Below are positions 1,390 to 27,630 of a stretch of 64,000 nt of DNA, in pieces (the stretch's first letter is position 1; every line of letters starts with the position of its first letter). Under the pieces are notes generated by a model. The model was not told the DNA's origin and searched no databases. It was given only the letters and a program-made list of their open reading frames with translations. Source of the stretch: a virus (taxonomy: Duplodnaviria > Caudoviricetes); IMG/VR virus record IMGVR_UViG_3300025018_000091. The stretch is one strand, 5' to 3'. The position numbers and the translations under genes were made by a program.

Positions 1390-1416
1390 TTATTTTCCCA
1401 TAATAATAGTTAGATA

Positions 1417-1761
1417 GGAGTAAATCTATAAGCGGAGTCCTGTCTATAAATCGAGACAATCATTAATCTTGGCGAACAATTACTCATTCGCTCCAGCGTC
1501 AACCCGGAAACTCAGACGAGTAGTCCTCAATCATTTCCTGTTCGACTTGCAGCACATAGGGTTTGCAAATGCCACTCATATCACTATGAGTGCGGTAGGC
1601 TCTTACCCTGCCTTTTCAACCTTACCATTTTACTGGCGGTATGTTTTCTGTTGCACTTTCCGTCACCTCACAATGCCTGGGTGTTACCCAGTATGTCACT
1701 CTTTGCTGCTCCGACTTTCCTCATATAACCGCCGGTTATATGCGATTGTCCAATCTACTCC
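1417..1761 (-). ncRNA. rnpB: RNase P RNA, bacterial type A
   Basis: Minus strand: GGAGUAGAUU/AAUUUACUCC-type P1, GACAAUCG/UGAUUGUC P2, GAGGAAAGUCGGAG with ACAGGACUCCGCUUAU (P4), CUGGGUAACACCCAG, ACGGAAAGUGCAACAGAAAACAUACCGCC, GGUAAGAGCC, GCAAACCC...GCAAG. Confidence 0.95.
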
Positions 1762-7980: not shown

Positions 7981-8565
7981 TTAATAAGGATACTTCTTCA
8001 TAACCTCATCATCTGTAGGTACGTCTTTATTAACCTTATATAGCGCTCTTGAGATTCTAGAAACGCTTATTCTTTCACCTTTAATACATCTACCAGTATC
8101 ATAAATAGATAAGCCTGATAGTATTCCATACTTCCTGCAACCGTTCATACTTCGATGCATTGCATGGATACCTGCTAACAAACACTTTTGTCTATCAGCA
8201 ATAAGCTCTGGTCCAGTCCAACCTTCTTTGGTTTTTCCTCGACCAATATTCATAGACATCATACACCAACTAGCTCCATTATCTCCTCGTTTTTTACCAG
8301 TAACAATCTCCTGTCTATAACCACCAGTTTCTTCTGATGATATTATTGCAACCAAAGCTGCTTCTTGCGCTCTTGCCCATTTACCACCAAACCATGGTGT
8401 ATGTGATGGATCATATACAATCAATTGTATATGACCCACTACTTCATTAACGTACTCAATGTGAGCAGCTTGAAGTGCTTCATCATTTGGATGCATTCTC
8501 TCTGGAGTAAAATTACCCAAGATAATAGATACCAACCAAATACGTAGTATTTGTACAGCAGTCAT
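7981..8565 (-). CDS. secreted lysozyme/transglycosylase-like protein
   Basis: N-terminal hydrophobic segment, helix ending in SSEETGG, GDNGASWCMMSMN resembling SLT GxMQ region. Confidence 0.4.
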   Translation of the reverse strand: MTAVQILRIWLVSIILGNFTPERMHPNDEALQAAHIEYVNEVVGHIQLIVYDPSHTPWFGGKWARAQEAALVAIISSEETGGYRQEIVTGKKRGDNGASWCMMSMNIGRGKTKEGWTGPELIADRQKCLLAGIHAMHRSMNGCRKYGILSGLSIYDTGRCIKGERISVSRISRALYKVNKDVPTDDEVMKKYPY

Positions 8566-8645
8566 TATACTCTCCTATTAAAATCAACTAATTAAATTTA
8601 TTTAATTAATCTACAGTATGAAGTATAAATGACTAAATATTGGCA

Positions 8646-8721
8646 TGGTGGTACATACTAGAGTTGAACTAGTATTTGCTGTTTATCAGACAACCGTCTT
8701 AGACCGTTGGACCAATGTACC
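8646..8721 (-). tRNA. tRNA-Ile(GAU)
   Basis: GGUACAU/AUGUACC-ACCA; loop CU-GAU-AA; UUCAA T loop. Confidence 0.9.
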
Positions 8722-10755: not shown

Positions 10756-11041
10756 ATTCTAAGCATGAATAAAACCATGCCAGAGGTTATACATTATATG
10801 TGCCATCTATCATAGATTTCAAAGTAGTTAATACTTCAATCTTACTAGGATAGCTGACAACAAATGTATTATGCTCATAACTAGCAATTCCAACATATTT
10901 TTGTGTTCGATTGTTATGACTCAACGTTATATCATAATCACACTTATTATACCAATCTAGTATTTCTAGCTTATTCATACATTCTCCATGTTAGATAAAT
11001 CTTTAGTATAAGATAATATGCATTGTTAATTACAAACAATT

Positions 11042-11117
11042 TGGTGGGACCAGAGGGATTTGAACCCTCATCAAACAGATTAAGAGTCTGCTATGTTTCC
11101 ATTGACACCATAGTCCC
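11042..11117 (-). tRNA. tRNA-Lys(CUU)
   Basis: GCAGA-CU-CUU-AA-UCUGU; CCA. Confidence 0.92.
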
Positions 11118-11120
11118 ATA

Positions 11121-11212
11121 CAATTACTACAAGTTCGTTGGCAACAGCGCTTCTTCGCTTCTCTACCTGTCTTATTGAGTTCATCAATTGTGCAACTTAC
11201 ACCAAGTAATTG
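11121..11212 (-). ncRNA. tRNA-derived ncRNA candidate, family 2 copy 1
   Basis: CAAUUACU/AGUAAUUG closing stem, D-arm-like UGGUGUAAG..GCAC, similar to 11530-11618. Confidence 0.4.
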
Positions 11213-11271
11213 CAAACACACGATACATCAGAGGCTGGTTAAACTATCACTTGAGTATCTTAGCGTGTCAG

Positions 11272-11342
11272 CGGAACTAGGGGGAATCGAACCCCCGCTT
11301 ATAGATCGACAATCTACAGTCCTACCATTAAACGATAGCTCC
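11272..11342 (-). tRNA. tRNA-Asp(GUC)
   Basis: GUAGA-UU-GUC-GA-UCUAU; CCA not encoded. Confidence 0.9.
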
Positions 11343-11344
11343 TA

Positions 11345-11450
11345 ATATCAGACAAAATATGTAAACATAAGGGAACCATCCCGTCAAGTTGGAATCGAAC
11401 CAAACTAGTTGTTGATTTGGTACAATGTAATGCTTACTGCATTCTGATAT
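11345..11450 (-). ncRNA. Y-RNA-like ncRNA D (T arm only)
   Basis: AUAUCAGA-AUGCA-GUAAGCAU-UACAU ... AUGUUUAC-AUAUUUUG-UCUGAUAU; internal UUGG-UUCGAUU-CCAA. Confidence 0.8.
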
Positions 11451-11525
11451 GGTGGGACCAGAGGGGGTCGAACCCTCACCGAACAGATTAAGAGTCTGGC
11501 ATGCTCCCATTAACACCACGGTCCC
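11450..11525 (-). tRNA. tRNA-Lys(CUU)
   Basis: CCAGA-CU-CUU-AA-UCUGU; paralog of 11042-11117. Confidence 0.92.
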
Positions 11526-11529
11526 ATTC

Positions 11530-11618
11530 GATTACGCTGGAGTCGGCAATAGCAGATCTTTACTATATCTCTCTCCAGTCCTAGAGTCAAGGTCTAGGCG
11601 CTCTTACGCTACATAACC
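11530..11618 (-). ncRNA. tRNA-derived ncRNA candidate, family 2 copy 2
   Basis: GGUUAUG/CGUAAUC closing stem, UAGCGUAAGAGCGC, CUAGA-CCUUGAC-UCUAG hairpin. Confidence 0.4.
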
Positions 11619-11650
11619 AAGGCTGTTTTATTCGAAGTCAACAACCTTTT

Positions 11651-11690
11651 TAGTAGGAAAGGGTGGATTTGAACCACCTTTTACTTTCCC
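11651..11690 (-). ncRNA. tRNA minihelix (acceptor stem plus T arm only)
   Basis: GGGAAAG-UAAAA-GGUGG-UUCAAAU-CCACC-CUUUCCU-A-CUA. Confidence 0.65.
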
Positions 11691-11693
11691 ATA

Positions 11694-11920
11694 ATAAACG
11701 ACAAAAATTTGCTAAGACACCGGCACATTGATGGTCTTTTCAGATTACATCCGTTCGCCCCGCACTTTTGAGTCAGTGACTCTCTAGAAGACAGCATTAC
11801 CTGTTACCTTCGACTTATGAATATTACTATTCAAATTAGCGCCATCGCGTAATTCCTCACGGAATCAGTAGCTACCTTAGGGTCATTATTGATATGTAGT
11901 CCTAACTTGCATTCGTTTAT
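11694..11920 (-). ncRNA. Y-RNA-like ncRNA E (long insert)
   Basis: AUAAACGA-AUGCAA-GUUAGGAC-UACAU ... GUCUUAGC-AAAUUUUUG-UCGUUUAU. Confidence 0.78.
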
Positions 11921-11997
11921 GGCTCCCGCACTAGGGTTTTCACCTAGAACCTCGCACCCTAATCTGGGTGGTACTCTGTATTTTGAGCTATACGGAA
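11920..11997 (-). pseudogene. tRNA-like gene with 6-nt anticodon loop
   Basis: Acceptor, D and T arms and CCA present; CACCC-AGAUUA-GGGUG. Confidence 0.6.
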
Positions 11998-12157
11998 TGG
12001 TCAACGGAAAAGGATTCGAACCTTTGACTACCCAGCACACTCAGAGTAACTATCATCGTCCTCAACATAATATATCGATCTATCATATTTGGTGTCGAAT
12101 AATCTTTAAACTAAATGCTTCTACTACTTGGTGCTCTGACCTCTGAGCTATCCGTCG
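11998..12157 (-). ncRNA. tRNA body with ~90-nt insert replacing the anticodon loop
   Basis: CGACGGA-UAGCUCAGAGGUCAGAGCA ... AAAGG-UUCGAAU-CCUUU-UCCGUUG-ACCA. Confidence 0.7.
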
Positions 12158-12162
12158 ATAAA

Positions 12163-12292
12163 GTAACAACAAGGATTTGAAGAGACTAGTTGTACTAGCG
12201 CCAGCTTCCCCATATAGTGGGGAATAAAGGAATCGGACCTTAATCGTTTATTGTATCAAAATAAAATGTAATCCCTTACATGCATTTGTTAC
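12163..12292 (-). ncRNA. Y-RNA-like ncRNA B with permuted tRNA-like domain
   Basis: GUAACAA-AUGCA-UGUAAGGGAU-UACAU ... AUCCUUG-UUGUUAC; T arm AAGG-UCCGAUU-CCUU then acceptor hairpin UUCCCCA-CUAUA-UGGGGAA. Confidence 0.75.
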
Positions 12293-12293
12293 G

Positions 12294-12376
12294 TGGTTTC
12301 CCCGCTAGGATTTGCACCTAGATTTTCTACTTAGTACGTACTTAAATAGATGTCCTAATTATTAGACGACAGAAAA
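12294..12376 (-). pseudogene. tRNA-like gene with 15-nt anticodon loop
   Basis: D arm UCGUCUAAUAAUUAGGAC, T arm CUAGG-UGCAAAU-CCUAG, CCA; loop UUAAGUACGUACUAA. Confidence 0.6.
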
Positions 12377-12380
12377 ATAC

Positions 12381-12452
12381 AATGCTTCTTCCTGGCTTCT
12401 ATTCCAGAATCTTCGCCCTAAGCGAGATAATAATTTATACTAAAAAAGCATT
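12381..12452 (-). pseudogene. highly degenerate tRNA-like gene
   Basis: AAUGCUU/AAGCAUU closing stem with cloverleaf-like spacing. Confidence 0.3.
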
Positions 12453-12529
12453 TGGTGCTTCCGTTCGCCTTTCGATAGCGAAATCTCCCAGGTTCATTCC
12501 GGGCGTTTTACCATTTAAACTACAGAAAC
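12453..12529 (-). pseudogene. tRNA-like gene with atypical anticodon and T loops
   Basis: GUUUCUG/CGGAAGC-ACCA; loop AAUGAAC lacks U33; 9-nt T loop. Confidence 0.55.
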
Positions 12530-12531
12530 AT

Positions 12532-12677
12532 AAGTGACAAGAAATATAAAGATTTTATTCGGCGCCCTGCACTTTTTCCTTTCGGACCACTTGTGCTATG
12601 ATTAGCTTTCACTAACCAGCAGGATTCGATACCTGCACCATCGGACATTTTTGATGTAATCCTTATTGCATTCACTT
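12532..12677 (-). ncRNA. Y-RNA-like ncRNA F with permuted tRNA-like domain
   Basis: AAGUGA-AUGCA-AUAAGGAU-UACAU ... AUCUUUAU-AUUUCUUG-UCACUU; GCAGG-UAUCGAAU-CCUGC then UGGUUAG-UGAAAG-CUAAUCA. Confidence 0.8.
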
Positions 12678-12763
12678 GGCTCTCAGGGCTGGATTCGAAC
12701 CAACGGTGCATTTCTACGGCGGATTAACAATCCGCTGCCTTGACCTGACTAGGCTACCTGAGA
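12677..12763 (-). tRNA. tRNA-Asn(GUU) with long variable arm
   Basis: GCGGA-UU-GUU-AA-UCCGC; Tyr-like D arm, 14-nt variable region; G73; CCA. Confidence 0.8.
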
Positions 12764-13083
12764 ATATTATACTCAATAAAAGACTCATTAAATATTGACA
12801 CATTTAGTGGAACTAACAACACTCCTTCATGAATCTCGGCATGACAATTATTACAAACTAAGATGCACTTTCGTAATTCAATTACGATTTTATTCCAACT
12901 TTTAGGACTTCCTCTAACTGCTCCCAAACCAAATTCTTTTTTAGAAGGATCTAAATGATGTAAAGATAATGCAGAAGAACATTTATTATATCCACAGAAG
13001 CAACATTTACCTCCCATTGCAAGTATAATTCTCTCTTTTGTGCGTTTTCTCCAACGCTTAACTTTCTCAGATTGCTTACTCAT
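12754..13083 (-). CDS. HNH endonuclease
   Basis: GGKCCFCGY..SLHHLDP...CILVCNNCHAEIH. Confidence 0.88.
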   Translation of the reverse strand: MSKQSEKVKRWRKRTKERIILAMGGKCCFCGYNKCSSALSLHHLDPSKKEFGLGAVRGSPKSWNKIVIELRKCILVCNNCHAEIHEGVLLVPLNVSIFNESFIEYNILR

Positions 13084-13097
13084 ACTTAGATATATAG

Positions 13098-13168
13098 CGA
13101 CCCCCCTCGGACTTGAACCGAGATTCGAAACTTAACAGGCTCCCGTTCTACCTTTGAACTAAAGGGTC
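13098..13168 (-). tRNA. tRNA-Asn(GUU)
   Basis: GGAGC-CU-GUU-AA-GUUUC; CCA not encoded. Confidence 0.85.
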
Positions 13169-13173
13169 AATTA

Positions 13174-13456
13174 TTGATGACAAAATTTGTAAAGATAATG
13201 GCTTTATCTTAAGTAACACTGACGTGCCTCAAGAGCCATAGTGTAAGTATCCCCTCAACACCATATGGAATGTAATTTATCCATTAACATCTTTTGGAAT
13301 ATACAATTAATACTCACTGCATATTTATGAGACATATAGTTTTCTAACGGGTTTACCATTCATTATGTTTCGGAATGGCGGGCATTTCTTATAAATAAGC
13401 ATTACCCATTTATTATCGGTTGTTGTATTTATGTAATCCTTACATGCATTCATCAA
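13174..13456 (-). ncRNA. Y-RNA-like ncRNA C (long AU-rich insert)
   Basis: UUGAUGA-AUGCA-UGUAAGGAU-UACAU ... AUCUUUACA-AAUUUUG-UCAUCAA. Confidence 0.78.
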
Positions 13457-13532
13457 TGGTGGGACCGGAGGGAATTGAACCCTCAACTTTCTGGTTAAAA
13501 GCCAGCTACTCTGCCAATTGAGTTACGGACCC
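13457..13532 (-). tRNA. tRNA-Lys(UUU)
   Basis: CUGG-CU-UUU-AA-CCAG; CCA. Confidence 0.92.
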
Positions 13533-13560
13533 GATTTGCGGATATCATCCGCAAGGGAAA

Positions 13561-13683
13561 CTATTTTTTAGTTGTTTGTTTGGTACTCTTAGAACTCTTG
13601 CTAGAGTTTTTATTGAGTTTTCGCCAACATGGTCGGCAATATTTACCGCCAAGTGAACGAGCAATCTCACATGCTTTACACAT
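13561..13683 (-). CDS. 40-aa basic CxxC..CxxC peptide (not in ORF track)
   Basis: GAGAGGAGGTG RBS then MCKACEIARSLGGKYCRPCWRKLNKNSSKSSKSTKQTTKK*. Confidence 0.55.
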   Translation of the reverse strand: MCKACEIARSLGGKYCRPCWRKLNKNSSKSSKSTKQTTKK

Positions 13684-13761
13684 AGTTCACCTCCTCTCAT
13701 TGAGTGGAGGTCACTAACTGTCAACTAAATAAACCATGAATTCTCCTTGAATAGAATTATT

Positions 13762-13906
13762 GTAGCAACGAAAATTTGTGAGACTATTTTTAACGTGTGC
13801 TGCCGCTACACTAACCCAAGATATAAAGTAAATTGGTCTTGGGTGCGGGAATCGGACCCGCCCTTCGTGCGCCCAATGCAATGTAATCCCAACATGCATT
13901 TGCTAC
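13762..13906 (-). ncRNA. Y-RNA-like ncRNA I with complete permuted T-acceptor-D domain
   Basis: GUAGCAA-AUGCA-UGUUGGGAU-UACAU ... GUCUCACA-AAUUUUCG-UUGCUAC; GCGGG-UCCGAUU-CCCGC, ACCCAAGA/UCUUGGGU hairpin, D arm UAGUGUAGCGGCAGCACAC. Confidence 0.85.
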
Positions 13907-13907
13907 T

Positions 13908-13982
13908 TGGTGGTCTCACTAGGACTTTCACCTAGACCGCCTCCTGAAATGGAGGTATTCATAAAACTTAAACTACAAGACC
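13908..13982 (-). pseudogene. tRNA-like gene with 6-nt anticodon loop
   Basis: GGUCUUG/UGAGACC-ACCA; CCUCC-AUUUCA-GGAGG. Confidence 0.6.
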
Positions 13983-13983
13983 A

Positions 13984-14080
13984 TGACGCTATAAACTTAT
14001 TTATTTGGTAGCGTCAGCGGGACTCGGACCCACAACCTCGTTCTTATAAATGAAATGTAATCCCTACAAGCATTTGCTAT
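13984..14080 (-). ncRNA. Y-RNA-like ncRNA J (5' module, T arm and acceptor hairpin; 3' strand not found)
   Basis: AUAGCAA-AUGCU-UGUAGGGAU-UACAU, GUGGG-UCCGAGU-CCCGC, UGACGCU-ACCA...AGCGUCA. Confidence 0.6.
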
Positions 14081-14081
14081 A

Positions 14082-14154
14082 TGGTCGCGAGACTGTGGGA
14101 TGAGCACAGATTTCCACCCTAAAAGTGGCGAGCTATCATTTACTCCATCTCGCA
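14082..14154 (-). pseudogene. tRNA-like gene, nominal anticodon UUA
   Basis: CCAC-UUUUAGG-GUGG; T loop CUCAUCC is non-canonical; CCA. Confidence 0.55.
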
Positions 14155-14155
14155 A

Positions 14156-14227
14156 TGGATGCGGAGGCAAGAATTGAACTTGCAGAATCTAGCTTATGAG
14201 ACTAGGTTGGGACCGTCTCTCCCCGCT
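14156..14227 (-). tRNA. tRNA-Met(CAU), reduced D arm
   Basis: CUAGU-CU-CAU-AA-GCUAG; A1:A72 mismatch; CCA. Confidence 0.75.
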
Positions 14228-14252
14228 ATAAAATAATGTATGATATACATCA

Positions 14253-14326
14253 TGGTGGAGCGTAGGGGTTACCCTCCCCTTCTTCTGCGGTGCAAGCGCA
14301 GCGTATTCGTATCCTACTCACGCCCC
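14253..14326 (-). tRNA. tRNA-Ala(UGC)
   Basis: G3:U70, CUGCG-CU-UGC-AC-CGCAG; atypical T loop. Confidence 0.82.
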
Positions 14327-14385
14327 ATATTATCTATGCATATAGTGGAATAAAATTAACTTGCACAAAATAGGAAAACTCCACT

Positions 14386-14880
14386 ATGGCTAAAACGAAA
14401 ACTAACTGTTTAAATTGTAACAAAGAAATTTATGTTGAAAACAAAGAAATTAAAAGAGGTTTTGGAAAATTTTGTAATTCCAAATGTTCTAGTGAACATA
14501 GAATTCGTAATAAACCAAAATTGCTAGATAATGTAAATTGTGCCCTATGCAATAAATCTTTTCATATGACCGAAAGTAAAAAAAAGTTATCAAAATCTGG
14601 ATTATATTTTTGTTGTCGAACACATAAAGATGAAGCACAACGCATTGGTGGTATAAAAGAAATTATGCCGCTACATTATGGCACCGCCAAACCAGACAAT
14701 TCTCGTTCTTATAGAAGAATAGCTTTCAATGAAAAAGCTAAAATGTGTGAAAGATGTGGATATGATCAACACGAAGCTGCGATAATTGTTCACCACAAAG
14801 ATAGCAACAGAGACAATAATAATCTAGATAATCTTGAAATATTGTGTGCTAATTGTCACGCTATAGAACATTGGAGCTGA
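14386..14880 (+). CDS. HNH homing endonuclease
   Basis: CERCGY..IVHHKDSNRDNNNLDNLEILCANCHAIEH. Confidence 0.9.
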   Translation: MAKTKTNCLNCNKEIYVENKEIKRGFGKFCNSKCSSEHRIRNKPKLLDNVNCALCNKSFHMTESKKKLSKSGLYFCCRTHKDEAQRIGGIKEIMPLHYGTAKPDNSRSYRRIAFNEKAKMCERCGYDQHEAAIIVHHKDSNRDNNNLDNLEILCANCHAIEHWS

Positions 14881-14903
14881 TGCCCGTGGAACTACATCTC
14901 ATT

Positions 14904-14977
14904 TGGTGACGCATAGGAGAGTCGAACTCCTCTTCGTAGATTGAAAGCCTAATGTCCTACCGATAGACGAACGCGCC
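14904..14977 (-). tRNA. tRNA-Glu(UUC)
   Basis: loop CU-UUC-AA; canonical D and T arms; CCA. Confidence 0.88.
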
Positions 14978-15064
14978 ATAACTATGATAAAATCACCGGA
15001 GTTGCGCCGGATATTGTCCTCACGAACAATATTGAATACCATCGACCCTAATTCTATCAATTTG

Positions 15065-15137
15065 TCAGAGAGAGAGGATTTGAACCTCCACCACATGGAT
15101 CCAAACCATGGACGCTACCAGATTACGCTACTCCCTG
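15065..15137 (-). tRNA. tRNA-Pro(UGG)
   Basis: CAUGG-UU-UGG-AU-CCAUG; CCA not encoded. Confidence 0.88.
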
Positions 15138-15247
15138 ATTGAGTCGCCCTAAGAGATATGTTCTAAACTAACTCCTTGGGCGGATTAGGTTTAGCCAATC
15201 AATCTCTATTATTCCCAAACCTATGCGGGCTGAACATAGGTCTTTCG

Positions 15248-15323
15248 TGGTCGGAATGAGAAGACTCGAACTTCCGATACCTTGTACCCAAAACAAGTGC
15301 CATAGCCACTAGGCGACATTCCG
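15248..15323 (-). tRNA. tRNA-Pro(UGG)
   Basis: CUUGU-UU-UGG-GU-ACAAG; CCA. Confidence 0.92.
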
Positions 15324-15424
15324 ATATACTTCTGCTCTCCAACTTTCTGTTACGCTTCAAAAGTAAAAGGTAACTTCTATTAATAAGTATCGTACGTTAG
15401 ACTTGGAATTAAGTACGTATACTT

Positions 15425-15508
15425 TGGTGGGGACGGTAGGATTCGAACCTACATTGCTCAAGACGGCATCTTTATCGGATGCTGAGAGACCCATCTCTCT
15501 TCGCCCCC
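15425..15508 (-). tRNA. Tyr-type tRNA body with atypical loop (nominal AUA, G33)
   Basis: GCAUC-CGAUAAA-GAUGC, long variable arm, canonical T arm, CCA. Confidence 0.6.
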
Positions 15509-15550
15509 ATTGGATATTAAATTATCAGCGATCAAGACGTCCCATGACGT

Positions 15551-15639
15551 TGGTGCCGCCTGGTGGAATCGAACCACATAGCCACTCGGGGCGCCTGATT
15601 TACAGTCAGGAGATCCTCCCAGGAATCTAGTCAGTCGGC
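15551..15639 (-). tRNA. tRNA-Tyr(GUA)
   Basis: CCUGA-CU-GUA-AA-UCAGG, long variable arm, CCA. Confidence 0.9.
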
Positions 15640-15803
15640 ATTATATTTTGAATTGAATGTATTTATCTCCTAAAGTTATAGAATTTTTAGTTATTAAAGG
15701 TACTGAAACTACATAATTATTACTAATAAAGTAATAAATTGCTGCCGCCAACCCTACATCTCCCTGTTTTTTAGTATTTACTTGATTAAACATGAGACAA
15801 TAT

Positions 15804-15871
15804 TAACTGACAAAATATAGTGTAGATGTTTTTGGTCAAATATCAATGTAATCCACACAAGCATTCAGTTA
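15804..15871 (-). ncRNA. Y-RNA-like ncRNA G (minimal, module only)
   Basis: UAACUGA-AUGCUU-GUGUGGAU-UACAU ... AUCUACAC-UAUAUUUUG-UCAGUUA; 68 nt. Confidence 0.75.
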
Positions 15872-15961
15872 TAGTAAAATTAAACGAATTTAATCGAATA
15901 ACTTTATATCGAACCCTACCAATATTACAGCATACAAATATTGATGATACTTAGGAGTAAT

Positions 15962-16613
15962 ATGAGGCAAGGTAAAATAGCATCTATCACAAACGAAGAA
16001 TTAACAACCCTTATACAAAACAATATATCATTGAAAAACGTTTTGTTATTTTTAAATCTACATCCGAGTAGTGGAAAATAGAAGATTAAAACAAAAATTA
16101 GAACAAGAGAATATCAATTACGATCATATCAAAAATGGTTCGGGATACGATCCCTCCAAAATACATACATTTAGAAAGCATGTATCATTGAATGATGTTC
16201 TTACTCTAAACTCTTCTTATAGTCCAAGATTACTTAAGAAGCGTCTTATAAAAGAAGGTTTATTATTCAACTATTGTAATGTATGTAATATACAGCCACT
16301 TTGGAATAATCTACCACTTCAATTACAGTTAGATCATATCAATGGTAACAATAGAGATAATAGGTTGGAAAATCTAAGATTATTATGCCCTAATTGTCAT
16401 TCCCAGACAGACACATTCGCTGCCAAAAATAAAATCAAAAAGAACAAACCTACAAAAATAGTACAACCACGAAAAACAAAGATAACTTGGCCAGATGACA
16501 ATGAGTTGCTAGATTTAGTAACAAACTCAAATTTTGTTCAAGTTGCCGCAACACTTGGTGTAAGTGATAATGCTATTAGAAAAAGATTAAAAAGAGCGGG
16601 GCTAATCAAATAA
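15962..16613 (+). CDS. HNH homing endonuclease (frameshift near 16075)
   Basis: LQLDHINGNNRDNRLENLRLLCPNCHSQT; upstream frame MRQGKIAS... from 15962 joins through GGAAAATAG indel. Confidence 0.85.
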
Positions 16614-16619
16614 TTAGCT

Positions 16620-16691
16620 TGGCAGGTGTGGTAGGTAACGATCCCACTAGTAGAAGTTTTGGAGGCTTCCCTCTCACCTTGAGTCACACCC
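16620..16691 (-). tRNA. tRNA-Trp(CCA)
   Basis: GAAGC-CU-CCA-AA-ACUUC; G73; CCA. Confidence 0.85.
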
Positions 16692-16877
16692 AAATAATTA
16701 CTATAATTGTAACTTATAATAATCATTCGATAAATTTCGGATTCATTATAAAATAAATCTAAGTGATTTTGGACGTCACTTACATCCCTATTTACCTAGA
16801 GGAAAATAACGATTCCCCTAATCTCTATGCATCGATGCATACTTTGTTAATTAATGTTACACTTAATTAACAAAGCT

Positions 16878-16990
16878 TGGTGCGGAAGGTTGGAATTAAA
16901 CCAACAACCTTCGGGTTAATCATTTAAACTCTAGTGTCGACGTTATCCATCAACTCAAGTCCCGGCGCTCCTTCTTCAAGCCGCTTCCAC
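16878..16990 (-). ncRNA. fMet-like tRNA body with ~45-nt insert in the anticodon loop
   Basis: GUGGAAG/CUUCCGC-ACCA; CCGGG ... UAACCCGAAGGUUGUUGG as in initiator tRNA. Confidence 0.65.
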
Positions 16991-16993
16991 ATA

Positions 16994-17059
16994 AAGGTAA
17001 CAAAAAGTGTAAAGATTGTTTTTTTAATGGTTAGATGTAATCCTTACGGCATTTACCTT
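16994..17059 (-). ncRNA. Y-RNA-like ncRNA H (minimal, module only)
   Basis: AAGGUAA-AUGCC-GUAAGGAU-UACAU ... AUCUUUAC-ACUUUUUG-UUACCUU; 66 nt. Confidence 0.78.
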
Positions 17060-17134
17060 GGTAGGAAAGGTTGGACTTCAACCAACGTCCTGACAACCTT
17101 TACGTTGCCTGCTCTTTCTCTGAGCTACTTCCCT
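17059..17134 (-). pseudogene. tRNA-like gene with 6-nt anticodon loop
   Basis: AGGGAAG/CUUUCCU-ACCA; GCAAC-GUAAAG-GUUGU. Confidence 0.6.
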
Positions 17135-17390
17135 ATATAATCAAACGAGATAATTAATCCTACTATCTATATATCAATATGCCTAAAAGTTTTATCCAGT
17201 TGTTATTTTTATTACAAGACCACCATTTATTATCAAATTAAGTCTTATTGGTCTCCAATCTTGAGTAAGCATATATGAGTTGCCATCTCTCTCAGCAACA
17301 CGAAAATTTATGTTTTTCTCTTTTAAAGTCGCTATTACATCCTCTTCTTTTTTCATAAGAAGACTCCCTATATCAACTCCAACATCTACC

Positions 17391-17418
17391 ATTGTAACCT
17401 CTTCTCACCGCCTGTCAA
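17391..17418 (-). promoter_or_regulatory. sigma70-like promoter TTGACA-N16-TACAAT
   Basis: Points into the tRNA/ncRNA cluster; overlaps the annotated ATG of ORF 17192-17392, whose real start is probably the next Met. Confidence 0.6.
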
Positions 17419-17465
17419 GCCCAGCGTTTTTCTTTTTTAACACCGCGCCCCGTTGCGTACACCAT

Positions 17466-17493
17466 ACTATAACACCGCCTCTCCGCCCGTCAA
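17466..17493 (-). promoter_or_regulatory. sigma70-like promoter TTGACG-N16-TATAGT
   Basis: Second tandem promoter at the head of the RNA cluster, preceded by GCGAGGGG. Confidence 0.6.
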
Positions 17494-18394
17494 CCCCTCG
17501 CTATTTTTTTAAAAAGCCGCCGATAATATTTAGACATAAATCTATGGAACTAAAAGAAATATTATCAAAGGTAGCACAATACGAGGCTCTAACTAAAAAG
17601 ATAGATCCAAACAAATATATTGTTTATACGCATGGAGTTGCCGGTAATGATAGGTTCTATATAAAATACAGAAACAAAACTGTTTGTACAATTAGTGTTT
17701 CCGCGATTAATCCGCAAATCAATGAAGTGATGGGATTTTTTTTCAACATCTCCTATCGCTGCTGCCATAGGAATGGCACTGTTAAACAAATATAAAACTC
17801 CATTAATTCCAGATCAAGAATCATTAACCGGAGACTCGTATCGAGTTTTAACTGCTTATTTCGATAGATATAAAAACGATCCTACATTAATTAGGAAGAT
17901 ATATCCTGATAAACCACTCACTCCATTTAATGCAGTATTCATGCACAATCCAGCTTTAGATAGCTTATCATCTAATATAGAAATAGTTGATATAAATAAT
18001 CAACCATTCGATAGGGCTCAAAGTTTCATACAAGATAGTGAACGTATATTCCAACAAACATATAATGTTGAAAATGCAATACCTATAAGTAACGATAATG
18101 AACTTGACTCTATCTATTCAAAATTAGATGATACAGATGAATCCGGTGAGCCATTGAAATCTGAAGTTTAATCGTGTGCCGACCACGCTTCTTGACAACA
18201 AACATCACCTTTATAATTCAAAGCCATAGTAAATAATTGTTCAAGTTCCAACTTAAGTTGGTCCAACTCCGCTTTCATTCTATCTCCGGTGCGCCTACCA
18301 AGATAGCCTGACTCATCCGCTGAACTCATATTTGAAGTTAATTCAATAATACGATCAACAATTTGATGATGCCTGGTCCACATCTCTTGCTTAG

Positions 18395-20521: not shown

Positions 20522-20908
20522 CTATATCAGTTTAAAACTTAATTTCTCTTGATGAGATAATTGTTTAATTTTGTATTCGAGCTTCATTGCTTCAGATTTT
20601 GTGGCGCAAAGATAATAAGAAACAATCCTAACTGGTCGTCTGGCTCTTGTATATTTTGCGCCCTTTCCATTATTGTGGATTTTTATTCTTTTCGCTAGAT
20701 TATTCGTAGCTCCCGTATATAATGTCCCATCGGCACATAATACAATATATGCTGCCCATTGTATTCCAATCTCAATAAGCTCTCGGCATGACTTGCAATA
20801 ATGCTGTTTTTTATCACAAGCAATTGCCATGGTCCTGCATTCACCTTGACCACAATTTAAACAAGGTGCATCACAGTAAGTATCATGTTCCCATGCAGTA
20901 TTCATCAC
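20522..20908 (-). CDS. GIY-YIG nuclease (YhbQ-like)
   Basis: AYIVLCADGTLYTGATNNLAKRIKIHNNGKGAKYTR. Confidence 0.88.
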   Translation of the reverse strand: MMNTAWEHDTYCDAPCLNCGQGECRTMAIACDKKQHYCKSCRELIEIGIQWAAYIVLCADGTLYTGATNNLAKRIKIHNNGKGAKYTRARRPVRIVSYYLCATKSEAMKLEYKIKQLSHQEKLSFKLI

Positions 20909-21756
20909 ACACCAAACACTTGTTTGAAAGTCGTATATATTGGCGTACCTTCTCTTGAATCATACACTGCAAAACATACATGACCAAAATCAGGGATATC
21001 AACCAATGCTTGCTTGAAAGCATTGGCTACCATATCTGGATCATTTCCAAACGCCCCACATCCCCATGCTCCAAGAATTATATTCTCATGTTGATAAAGT
21101 CTGGCAATATGTAGAATTTTCAATATCCTATTATAAATAACAGAATATAAAACCTTTTCATCTATATCCTCCATTGACCTTACGTTTGGGGCAGGTGCTG
21201 AAATTATAGATAAATAATATGGATTTTCAAGGAACTGATTATATTCATCCCTAAAGAAAGGAACATTGGGAGAATAGATTATATTATCTGTATAGAATGT
21301 ATCATCACAAAGAATGTTCTCATTATAGAACACAGGCTTACGTTTAGTACAAACATATAATCCAGAACGCCTACAAAGGTCTTCTTCTTGAGCAACCGCT
21401 CCAGATAAAAAGCCGCCGCCAACATTACGAGCAGAAGCAAAATTCAATGCCACTATATCTTTTTTATTATCAGCAAGCAAACGAACCGCTGCTTGTGTGG
21501 TTGTTTCATTTACAACATCTACGATAGGGGCTGTCACGCTGGCTACAGGCGAAGTAGGTTGAGCATAAATGGCAGGAGTTACATCCTGAAATAGTTTGGT
21601 ATGATCAATAGCTTCATCCAAAGCAAAAGAAATGTCAACAATATTTCCGCTTGGTGCAATATATTGTTTATGTTTTAATACATCTAGCGTATCTTTTGCG
21701 AGGGAAACATTCTTTGTCCTAGCATTCATTAATGCAACACCATCACGTTTAATCAT
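20905..21756 (-). CDS. TIGR02452 family macrodomain (microbial PARG-like)
   Basis: ALNFASARNVGGGFLSGAVAQEEDLCRRSGLY; IILGAWGCGAFGNDP. Confidence 0.9.
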   Translation of the reverse strand: MIKRDGVALMNARTKNVSLAKDTLDVLKHKQYIAPSGNIVDISFALDEAIDHTKLFQDVTPAIYAQPTSPVASVTAPIVDVVNETTTQAAVRLLADNKKDIVALNFASARNVGGGFLSGAVAQEEDLCRRSGLYVCTKRKPVFYNENILCDDTFYTDNIIYSPNVPFFRDEYNQFLENPYYLSIISAPAPNVRSMEDIDEKVLYSVIYNRILKILHIARLYQHENIILGAWGCGAFGNDPDMVANAFKQALVDIPDFGHVCFAVYDSREGTPIYTTFKQVFGV

Positions 21757-26469: not shown

Positions 26470-27630
26470 TTAATCTTCTAAATATGAAGCTAAAAAGATC
26501 ATACCTAATACACACCAATCCATATTAGGGTTATTTAATAATTCTTTTACAGTATAAACTTCAATAAATGTTCTTTCTGTATCAGATTCTACACCATGAA
26601 CAATTCCCTTCTGAGACTTAAACCACTTCATTTCATCTTCAGTTAGTTCAACTGAATAAAAATATGATCTGTGTGATGATAGTGTTGCACATAGTTGACG
26701 AGACTGATGGAACTTAAGTCTATCTGGTTCTACTGCAAAACCTGTCTCTTCTAATACTTCTTCTGCTGCTACTACCTTTGGATGCTCTGTTTTCTTAGAA
26801 GATCCTCCGACTAACTCTCGAACAAATCCATCTTCAGATACTGATGGTGTTCTGAATTCTTTTACTATTATTAGTTCCGAATCCTCTAACTTATCTTCTC
26901 TCTTCCATAATAGAATAGAAGAAATGTCTGGTCTAGCCAGAACAAATTCATTTGTCTTATGACGGTCTTCGTCTTTAATATAAATATCCGCCTTTAAAAT
27001 CCACATAAATACAAAGCTTTTATGCCCCGGTCTAAATGAATATAAAACTTTAGCACCATCTAATCTGTTACCAGCTTTAGTCTGCGCATTATACCAAGAT
27101 TGAAATGAATCTAATTTCCAAATATACAGCGGAACAAAACGCTCACCACCAGCACGTTCCTCTCCCTTACCCAACATATCCATTGCATTAGTAAGAGTCT
27201 CAGTTAAAGAATCACCTATAGGAACATTATATTTCTCAGAATAATTCAATAGATATCTATTCTTTGGAGCATCTTCTGGGGCACCGAACACAATCTTTCC
27301 AGACTCACACCACATACCAAACTCAACATTTGTAGTAAATGCTGGCATTGTTTCTAAATCTCTTGGCACCCAGAATACAATACAATCTGCTATATTAAGA
27401 TGTTCTTCTTCCCACTCTATAATTTTTTCGTAATCAAAAGATTCATCAAACTTATTATCATTATTCTCTGGACAAAAAATAACACCATCATATCCCTTAT
27501 CACTTAAGATCTGTATTGCATCTTTTCGCCACGACTCTATATCTTGCCCAGATCTTACAGATGGTCCAGCCAAAAATATACTTTTATTAATTGTTTTTGG
27601 TAATTCATCATTATAATAAATGATTTGCAT
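26470..27630 (-). CDS. nucleoside 2-deoxyribosyltransferase-like / Nudix hydrolase fusion
   Basis: IFLAGPS..SWRKDA, IVFWVPR...TTNVEFG in N-half; ELVGGSS...AAEEVLEETG Nudix box in C-half. Confidence 0.8.
   Translation of the reverse strand: MQIIYYNDELPKTINKSIFLAGPSVRSGQDIESWRKDAIQILSDKGYDGVIFCPENNDNKFDESFDYEKIIEWEEEHLNIADCIVFWVPRDLETMPAFTTNVEFGMWCESGKIVFGAPEDAPKNRYLLNYSEKYNVPIGDSLTETLTNAMDMLGKGEERAGGERFVPLYIWKLDSFQSWYNAQTKAGNRLDGAKVLYSFRPGHKSFVFMWILKADIYIKDEDRHKTNEFVLARPDISSILLWKREDKLEDSELIIVKEFRTPSVSEDGFVRELVGGSSKKTEHPKVVAAEEVLEETGFAVEPDRLKFHQSRQLCATLSSHRSYFYSVELTEDEMKWFKSQKGIVHGVESDTERTFIEVYTVKELLNNPNMDWCVLGMIFLASYLED

Follow-up and report, generated by a model that had tools for sequence, protein, structure and literature searches.

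How are Y RNAs made when their genes lie wedged between tRNA genes? The question is raised by a 64,000-nucleotide stretch of the Caudoviricetes record IMGVR_UViG_3300025018_000091 of IMG/VR, hereafter the window, in which ten related small RNAs, labelled M1–M10, are encoded in a tRNA array of a phage that also carries a gene for the protein Ro60 (Rsr). To our knowledge, the making of bacterial and phage Y RNAs is largely obscure beyond their being processed from a longer transcript. The gene layout described here predicts both ends of the Y RNAs and ties their making to tRNA maturation. We favour, with a probability of about 0.7, a reading in which the Y RNAs reside in tRNA operons and would be released from tRNA precursors by tRNA end processing.

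The ten RNAs share a 20-nt motif, (A)AUGC-N-GUAAGGAUUACAU, which occurs in ten minus-strand copies between 8.9 and 17.1 kb, against approximately 0.02 expected by chance at exact-plus-3-mismatch stringency. The 5′ strand of each member reads N7-AUGC-N1–4-S2...UACAU, and a 3′ strand of the form S2′-(A)AAUUUUG-like loop-S1′ is present in nine of the ten. The 7 nt located 5′ of AUGC pair with a downstream 7 nt in nine copies, forming the closing helix S1; a AAAUUUUG-like loop precedes the S1′ strand, and the inner helix S2 spans 6–9 bp. RNAfold recovers S1 and S2 for M2, M5, M9 and M10, and for M7 in the centroid fold. S1 also covaries: among 25 distinct helices, positions 2–7 are paired in 24–25, and positions 2–6 show 2–4 pair types. 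Because the short covarying 3′ strands could not be aligned by MAFFT, a scripted two-helix descriptor was used in place of a covariance model; it returns approximately 1.6 false hits per shuffled 64 kb and misses some true members. A scan of viral contigs with the exact motif AATGC-N4–8-GGATTACAT was rejected, as its roughly 117 loci were nearly all single chance matches without a closing stem, and loci anchored on Rsr were used instead.

Comparison with Rfam places these RNAs near two known types. M7 matches the YrlA model (RF02553) with 28.9 bits (E = 2.6e-4 on a 421-nt stretch, permissive scan); in this alignment the shared motif falls on the Ro-binding strand of the consensus (gaAUGCuugGGgaaCUAc), and downstream of it come first a T arm, then a closed acceptor helix and then a D arm, before the strand returns. 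M9 shows a weak match of 22 bits to YrlB, and the Rfam YrlA and YrlB models match no member other than these two. All members remain under the Rfam gathering threshold, none reaching the curated RF02553 score of 69 bits, and they are therefore named YrlA/YrlB-like Y RNAs, not curated family members. The sequence (G/A)AAUGC stands at the aligned place in 10/10 members, and the full CGAAUG core of GNCGAAN0–1G only in M3. The module of T arm, closed acceptor and D arm is present in M7 and in the orthologues of M4 in related phages, M2 has a T arm only, and M9 and M10 contain no tRNA-like domain and are therefore YrlB-like. Judged from the M7 match with its aligned motif, the Ro60/Rsr gene of the window, the covariation and the predicted folds, all ten belong to the phage Y RNAs, of YrlA/YrlB type, and are the expected partners of the phage Ro60/Rsr.

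Much like that of the YrlA and YrlB RNAs of bacteria and phages, the closing helix has a (G/A)AAUGC 5′ strand and a AAAUUUUG-like 3′ strand (PMC4201824; RF02553), and, as with YrlA, some members contain a circularly permuted tRNA-like domain (PMC4201824); a Ro60 gene lies in the same region. Unlike YrlA, the window holds ten paralogues instead of one to four, and these lie 6–14 kb from rsr instead of within the 4 kb used by the authors of the YrlA survey (PMC4201824). Several members also differ from YrlA by having no tRNA-like domain or by carrying large non-tRNA inserts, and members stand flush against flanking tRNA genes.

The junctions with these flanking genes are listed in Table 1, in which the start gap is counted from the encoded upstream CCA to the first S1 base and the end gap from the S1′ end to the next tRNA-shaped 5′ end. 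The first-pass annotation had claimed that nine of the ten RNAs start at an upstream CCA and that eight end 1–6 nt ahead of a downstream body, and measurement bears out both counts. Start gaps range from −2 to +1 nt with M9 as the sole exception, and the eight ends belong to seven complete members and to the hairpin of M8, with none for M7 and M9; M1 falls outside the range 11345–17134 of that annotation. The downstream partners are real tRNAs (Ile, Asp, Asn), a degenerate cloverleaf behind M5 (no U33, T loop AUCGAAA), two insertion-bearing bodies and, behind M3, a 41-nt minihelix made of acceptor and T arm only. M8 lacks a 3′ strand of its own, with its acceptor hairpin closing 1 nt ahead of the tRNA-like body at 13982, and is either a truncated copy or a user of the 3′ strand of M7. 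Among random positions of these arrays, 1.6% have a CCA with a T-arm hairpin ahead of it in the junction window, so that nine of ten gives P ~ 7e-16, a value that overstates the significance because members are treated as independent and several are paralogous.

Table 1. Y RNAs, tRNA-shaped bodies and neighbouring features of the window, in the direction of the array and then by kind.
Feature	Position	Strand	Remarks
Conserved promoter-like motif GGCATATTGATATATAGAT	17165..17183	−	30 nt ahead of first tRNA-like body
Leader body, non-decoding, 6/8-nt anticodon loop, T loop UUGAAGU, ACCA	17059..17134	−	found again in X1, X2 and X3 contigs
Y RNA M10, 66 nt, bare Ro-binding module	16994..17059	−	start gap −1, S1 overlaps A of CCA; end gap 3 nt
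tRNA-like body with ~36-nt insertion	16878..16990	−	3 nt downstream of M10
Y RNA M9, 68 nt, free-standing	15804..15871	−	tRNA absent from both sides; leader conserved
tRNA-like body, 7-nt UUA anticodon loop, T loop CUCAUCC, ACCA	14082..14154	−	relaxed ARAGORN
M8, truncated: Y RNA 5′ strand, T arm, closed 7-bp acceptor, encoded ACCA	13984..14080	−	start gap +1
tRNA-like body, 6-nt anticodon loop, T loop UGAAAGU, ACCA	13908..13982	−	ARAGORN
Y RNA M7, full YrlA architecture: S1/S2, T arm, closed acceptor with ACCA, D arm	13762..13906	−	start gap +1
tRNA-Lys(UUU) / Y RNA M6 (283 nt) / tRNA-Asn	13532-13457 / 13456-13174 / 13168-13097	−	gaps 0 and 5 nt
tRNA-Asn / Y RNA M5 / tRNA-like body	12763-12677 / 12678-12531 / 12529-12453	−	gaps −2 and 1 nt
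tRNA-like body / Y RNA M4 / tRNA with ~86-nt insert	12376-12294 / 12292-12163 / 12157-11998	−	gaps 1 and 5 nt
tRNA-like body / Y RNA M3 (225 nt) / minihelix	11997-11920 / 11919-11695 / 11690-11650	−	gaps 0 and 4 nt
tRNA-Lys(CUU) / Y RNA M2 / tRNA-Asp	11525-11450 / 11449-11346 / 11342-11271	−	gaps 0 and 3 nt
tRNA-Phe / Y RNA M1 / tRNA-Ile	8968-8893 / 8891-8728 / 8721-8646	−	gaps 1 and 6 nt
Two sigma-70-like promoters, TTGACG-16-TATAGT and TTGACA-16-TACAAT	17493-17466, 17418-17391	−	10/12 and 11/12 matches
Phage Ro60/Rsr, 523 aa	22951..24522	−	PF25045 3.6e-19, PF05731 6.8e-12; TROVE and Ro60-vWA domains
Phage class A RNase P RNA	1413..1761	−	Rfam RF00010, 278 bits, model positions 1-367, curated score reached
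HNH endonuclease gene	16071-16613	+	antisense to array
HNH endonuclease gene	14386-14880	+	antisense to array
HNH endonuclease gene	12754-13083	−	array, same strand
HNH endonuclease gene	1970-2488	−	one of four in or around array

The layout is not confined to the window. Eight IMG/VR huge-phage contigs encode Rsr with 68–77% identity and have Y RNA arrays 3–10 kb downstream of it, and the synteny of Rsr and Y RNAs is kept in seven relatives. Junction statistics were collected for 38 Y RNAs found by the two-helix descriptor in the window and six relatives, with P values that assume independence, so that significance is overstated. A CCA ends −2 to +3 nt from the start of 25 of the 38 Y RNAs, compared with 7.3% of random array positions; in 20 of the 38 a T-arm hairpin stands ahead of this CCA (1.6% at random), and a strict tRNA-shaped start follows within 10 nt downstream of 15 (1.5% at random). 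Five related huge phages share the abutting layout, as does Myxococcus phage Mx1. ARAGORN maps of the relatives contain units such as Val*-Y62-Tyr, Glu-Y110-Pro and Asp-Y71-Ile, whose parts are −1 to 4 nt apart; several seeming exceptions are preceded by T arm–acceptor–ACCA elements missed by ARAGORN, and more Y-like starts directly after a CCA exist that the descriptor misses. The G001 record, a single one that is 79% complete and is given no weight here, has neither the tRNA flanks nor an RNase P RNA match. Additional YrlA-like matches of up to 36.9 bits lie approximately 80–100 kb from Rsr in two relatives (G003:C1:128025-128139 and G004:C1:114253-114347), which suggests that these phages have second Y RNA loci.

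Orthologous Y RNAs have changed partners among these phages. The upstream partner of the M1-type Y RNA is tRNA-Phe in the window and tRNA-Ile in L131, and that of the M4-type is a defective body in the window and tRNA-Pro(CGG) in L125, L126 and L129, in each case with a gap of 0–2 nt. As Y orthologues are rejoined to different tRNAs at 0–2 nt, the junction has been formed anew when the array was rearranged, a pattern that speaks for constraint rather than inheritance alone.

The dependence could also run in the opposite direction, with the Y modules serving the tRNAs: Rsr bound to a Y stem would recruit or block exonucleases and thereby control the 3′ trimming or quality control of tRNA precursors. 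The position of Y RNAs directly 3′ of CCA ends fits such a role, and Rsr–Y RNA particles tether 3′–5′ exonucleases such as PNPase (PMC4201824, and the available portion of PMC12135203). However, 93 of the 107 canonical tRNAs of the arrays have no Y RNA behind them, and free-standing Y RNAs exist; we regard this explanation as improbable. An encoded CCA is not special to the tRNAs ahead of Y RNAs, being present in 96 of the same 107.

The closest isolate by Rsr (53% identity) is phage Mx1, whose tRNA array (L001) contains two tRNA-butted Y RNAs. One is a YrlA-like RNA (32 bits) at 8207-8335, with a weak tRNA match up to 8203 on one side and a tRNA from 8337 on the other. The second, at 8559-8662, has the same motif and two covarying helices and starts 2 nt past tRNA-Ile. 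This second RNA is overlain by an annotated hypothetical protein, WNM70101.1 (L001 8562-8684; 45524-45646 of the Mx1 record), a coding sequence that is probably a mis-annotation. The tRNA-like bodies of Mx1 at L001 7826-7899 and 8672-8740 encode ACCA and contain the motif GAAUGC internally; they stand 0–1 nt ahead of true tRNAs, which are themselves without an encoded CCA. In Streptomyces phage Limpid, a YrlA-like RNA of 37.8 bits (L135 3331-3437) lies 19 nt after tRNA-Ile in an array beside a Ro-like gene, so that the huge-phage clade is not alone in having Y RNAs inside tRNA arrays.

What would cut such RNAs out? Gaps of −2 to +6 nt leave no room for promoters or terminators, and on this ground the butted Y RNAs are almost certainly co-transcribed with their neighbours and cut out of tRNA precursor transcripts. 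In the proposed mechanism, all Y RNAs but M9 would be transcribed as parts of tRNA precursors, without transcription signals of their own, and would be released by the tRNA end-processing machinery of the cell or the phage. The Y RNA 3′ end would arise where RNase P cleaves at the 5′ end of the next tRNA-shaped body, a step with good grounding. Bacterial RNase P prefers U at position −1, and U stands at −1 of the downstream tRNA at 16 of 20 junctions, compared with 31% U in the array (P ~ 1e-5). The Y RNA 5′ end would be generated by an endonucleolytic cut that exposes the upstream CCA, which might be made by an RNase E-type enzyme cutting at the CCA in one step, by an RNase Z cutting after the CCA, or by RNase P with the 7-bp stem of the Y RNA as its substrate.

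Both kinds of cut have bacterial precedents. YrlA of M. smegmatis is cut by RNase P in the acceptor loop and ends in CCA (PMC4201824); the YrlA-type members M7, M8 and the M4 orthologues of relatives contain, internally, a 7-bp acceptor hairpin with an encoded ACCA behind it; in this they resemble the M. smegmatis RNA and may, by analogy, be cut in the same way. For the proline tRNAs of E. coli, the available portion of one report describes RNase E cutting exactly at the CCA (PMC5291269). Of the earlier proposal, RNase P at tRNA 5′ ends accounts only for the Y RNA 3′ ends, whereas the cut directly after the CCA, which would make the 5′ ends, requires another activity.

A different view of the junctions is that no cut is made at the CCA, the tRNA-shaped body and the Y module forming one two-domain RNA, a re-wired YrlA in which a tRNA mimic recruits a tRNA-binding partner. 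Known YrlA RNAs do combine a Ro-binding stem with a tRNA-like domain (PMC4201824), and bare members without a tRNA-like domain of their own, namely M10 here and 58–62-nt ones in relatives, follow non-decoding or pseudogene-flagged bodies at −1 to 0 nt. Many junctions nevertheless use canonical tRNAs (Phe, Lys and Asn in the window; Glu, Pro, Asp, Ile and Gln in relatives), which require a free CCA for charging, so that a cut at the CCA must exist. We therefore think an uncut two-domain RNA unlikely.

The bodies immediately upstream of M3, M4, M7, M8 and M10 are tRNA-shaped and abnormal. All five fold as cloverleaves that ARAGORN, at relaxed thresholds, flags as “possible pseudogene”; three of them have no Rfam tRNA match even at E ≤ 10. 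The first-pass annotation had described these neighbours as keeping acceptor, T arm and CCA around broken loops, and the pairing agrees: acceptor pairs are intact in 35/35 cases and T-stem pairs in 25/25 (7/7 and 5/5 in each body), and NCCA is present in all five. The anticodon stems are paired at 21 of 25 positions, and the anticodon loops of the bodies ahead of M3, M4, M7 and M10 have 6 or 8 nt. No T loop is canonical (UUCRANY), the five sequences being UUGAAGU, CUCAUCC, UGAAAGU, UGCAAAU and UGAAAAC, and the D-loop GG of the elbow is missing in all five, as judged by eye. The UUA anticodon of the body ahead of M8 is ochre-suppressor-like, and a similar tRNA-Stop* call follows Y160 in L129.

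The leader body, which stands ahead of M10, is the best-conserved case. Its orthologues head the arrays of five relatives, making six phages in all, and an RNAalifold analysis of the six supports a cloverleaf of 22 pairs, 12 of them with compensatory changes. In this family the anticodon loop is replaced by 6–16 nt, with a GUAA or GAAA (GNRA) cap in three phages. Given these compensatory changes, the leader body is a tRNA-shaped RNA predicted to be incapable of decoding and maintained by selection for its shape. More generally, we infer that the non-decoding bodies, among which are also bodies with insertions and the 41-nt minihelix, keep the parts read by end-processing enzymes and would serve at least as cut-site carriers.

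The defective bodies could also be decaying tRNA pseudogenes carried along in duplicated cassettes of tRNA and Y RNA, within a quickly changing array rich in homing endonucleases; the tight junctions would then be a compact inheritance, without selection of the bodies as spacers. This overlaps with our preferred reading, as it denies spacer selection but not tRNA-dependent release. It gains weight from the bodies ahead of M3, M4 and M7, which have one T arm in common (CUAGG-UGNAANN-CCUAG), from the tandem duplicate M7/M8, from the three HNH genes within the array, and from relatives in which orthologous Y RNAs follow working tRNAs, such as Pro(CGG). Orthologues of the CUAGG-T-arm bodies were sought in the relatives, where the stem was found only in canonical tRNAs. 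Simple decay, on the other hand, sits poorly with a leader body that is non-decoding yet covarying across six phages, with acceptor and T stems paired at 60/60 positions against the lower anticodon-stem count, with the acceptor/T-arm minihelix retained 4 nt past M3, and with the rejoining of one Y orthologue to different tRNAs at 0–2 nt. We consider the pseudogene account possible, although on the unlikely side.

Could the odd loops and tight junctions be errors of assembly? The first-pass annotation had raised this doubt itself, as homopolymer indels, and it was not upheld. Logan contigs of the source run, assembled independently, show 0 differences from the window over 11000-13711 and 13682-17185 at a depth of 17–20 and keep the abnormal loops, a second aquifer sample is identical across 16915-17200, and a diverged relative from another habitat has substitutions but no indel within 17059-17134. 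As independent contigs, second sample and relative agree, the loops are not assembly artefacts, and orthologous non-decoding bodies in five other assemblies make the error account extremely improbable.

Release by tRNA end processing, which we prefer, also has to face several observations that weigh against it. M9 stands free behind a promoter-like motif, and so do the four M9-type copies arranged in tandem in L122, so tRNA flanks are not obligatory. M7 has no tRNA-shaped end nearby downstream, the next tRNA being 229 nt away. The common T arm makes three of the bodies paralogous, and their adjacency to Y RNAs is thus partly inherited by duplication. Elbow contacts between D-loop GG and T-loop UC belong to the recognition of tRNA by RNase P, and defective bodies without them are expected to be weaker substrates. 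The flanks in relatives are mostly canonical tRNAs, so that defective spacers would be a feature of this genome and not a general rule. Finally, the complete Mx1 genome has butted Y RNAs although no class A RNase P RNA was found in it; the layout can therefore exist without a phage ribozyme.

These points leave parts of the original proposal standing. Defective tRNAs as processing spacers are favoured by the intact acceptor and T stems and by the conserved leader and disfavoured by the canonical flanks of relatives, and some defective bodies may be no more than decaying copies. By its position the phage RNase P RNA is a plausible processor, lying beside the array here and directly downstream of the arrays, at the same relative position, in G002, G003 and G004, but Mx1 shows that it is not needed. 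The notion of a single polycistronic transcript finds no support as stated, the cluster being interrupted by two antisense HNH genes, several same-strand open reading frames (ORFs), further promoter-like sites and the free-standing M9. A bolder version, in which the phage clade runs a self-contained tRNA punctuation with dedicated non-decoding bodies (elbow-less cloverleaves, the GNRA-capped leader, the minihelix) selected as pure cut-site carriers, Y RNAs destined for Ro60 and its own RNase P ribozyme adapted to such substrates during infection, is speculative and in our estimate rather unlikely.

Promoter-like sites of more than one kind lie ahead of and within the array. The two promoters previously proposed to point into the cluster are confirmed as the top-scoring sigma-70-like sites of the region between 7 and 18 kb; they precede both a 66-aa ORF and the cluster. 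Closer to the array, the motif GGGCATA-N-TGATATAGAT stands ahead of the leader body in the window and in relatives. In the form GGGCATATTGATATATAG, it precedes the first tRNA-like body also in L124–L128 and each of the four tandem M9-type Y RNAs in L122 (14555-14572, 14697-14714, 14833-14850 and 14975-14992), and it is, from this distribution, probably a phage-specific promoter. No minus-strand terminators were found within the array except T-arm look-alikes. A conserved AUUAAA-UUCG-UUUAAU tetraloop hairpin lies directly 5′ of the free-standing M9-type Y RNA, at ~15880-15905 (minus strand) in the window and at 14590-14612 in L122, and may be an alternative 5′-end handle in the absence of a tRNA.

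The array contains other unusual elements. In the split tRNA behind M4 the acceptor is perfect (CGACGGA/UCCGUUG) and D arm, T arm and ACCA are present, while the insert contains a promoter-like site at 12098-12069. Other inter-tRNA spacers of 76–153 nt (12377-12452, 11526-11649 and 11118-11270, all on the minus strand) are not Y RNAs and appear structured; the 76-nt spacer 12377-12452 begins with AAUGC directly after a CCA and is closed by AAUGCUU/AAGCAUU. Such spacers may be further RNAs freed in the same way. A tRNA-Tyr paralogue at 15425-15508 (minus strand), called with anticodon AUA, adjoins a normal tRNA-Tyr(GUA).

Across the window, G+C content is low (33–40%), and ARAGORN finds 23 tRNAs, every one on the minus strand. 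The HNH endonuclease genes likely drive array rearrangements. The Ro60/Rsr of the window is presumed to be the protein partner of the Y RNAs; its gene is flanked by a microbial-type PARG gene (20905-21756) and a nucleoside 2-deoxyribosyltransferase-like/NUDIX fusion (26470-27630), both on the minus strand. A megablast search of phage records with 11000-17500 gave no match.

Phages that encode both Ro60 and Y-like RNAs are known, including mycobacteriophages, CcrColossus, phage G and Thermus phage phiLo (PMC4201824, and the available portion of PMC12135203). As in phiLo, where Ro60 occurs with Yrl1 and Yrl2, both components are phage-encoded here. In Bas63, according to the accessible part of a 2024 preprint, the Ro60-like gp130 lies upstream of the tRNA genes, and some adjoining ‘tRNA genes’ were guessed to be Y RNAs (PMC11482910). 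The available portions of the phiLo (PMC12135203) and Bas63 (PMC11482910) accounts make no mention of Y RNAs that abut tRNA ends, of spacers shaped like tRNAs or of a processing logic, and the survey by Chen et al. in 2014 deliberately dropped YrlA hits overlapping tandem tRNAs (PMC4201824).

A phage tRNA cluster with other stable RNAs is found in T4, which holds RNAC and RNAD, of unknown function (PMC9697503). As in T4, the tRNA operon of the window would also yield small stable non-tRNA RNAs; T4 has two such RNAs, in contrast to the alternating array here. T4 RNAC and RNAD are processed from tRNA precursors with RNase P, and we know of no Ro60 gene in T4 and of no YrlA-type module in either RNA. 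Beyond phages, tRNAs or uncharged tRNA-like handles occur in mitochondrial transcripts, in the MALAT1-mascRNA pair and in plant tRNA-snoRNA dicistrons. A viral example, described in the accessible part of one paper, is given by the tRNA-miRNA units of murine gammaherpesvirus 68 (MHV68), with tRNA-handle processing (PMC4045068). The array resembles the mitochondrial, MALAT1 and MHV68 handles in that a tRNA-shaped body would recruit RNase P and/or RNase Z and thereby define the ends of a neighbouring RNA. It differs from these eukaryotic and organellar handles in its bacteriophage Y RNA cargo, its encoded CCA and an upstream cut placed after the CCA instead of the discriminator. An alternating array of tRNAs and Y RNAs with flush junctions, conserved non-decoding bodies and a minihelix, beside a phage RNase P RNA, was not found in the papers searched.

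The same phage thus carries Ro60 and an RNase P ribozyme alongside Y RNAs linked to tRNAs. If the processing reading is correct, the layout would offer an easy way to recognise phage Y RNAs now hidden or mis-annotated in tRNA arrays, and Mx1, which is cultivable, allows the prediction to be tested directly. It would also represent a bacterial-virus counterpart of the tRNA-handle processing of mitochondria and herpesviruses, and would give a reason for phages to retain tRNA-shaped genes that are unable to decode.

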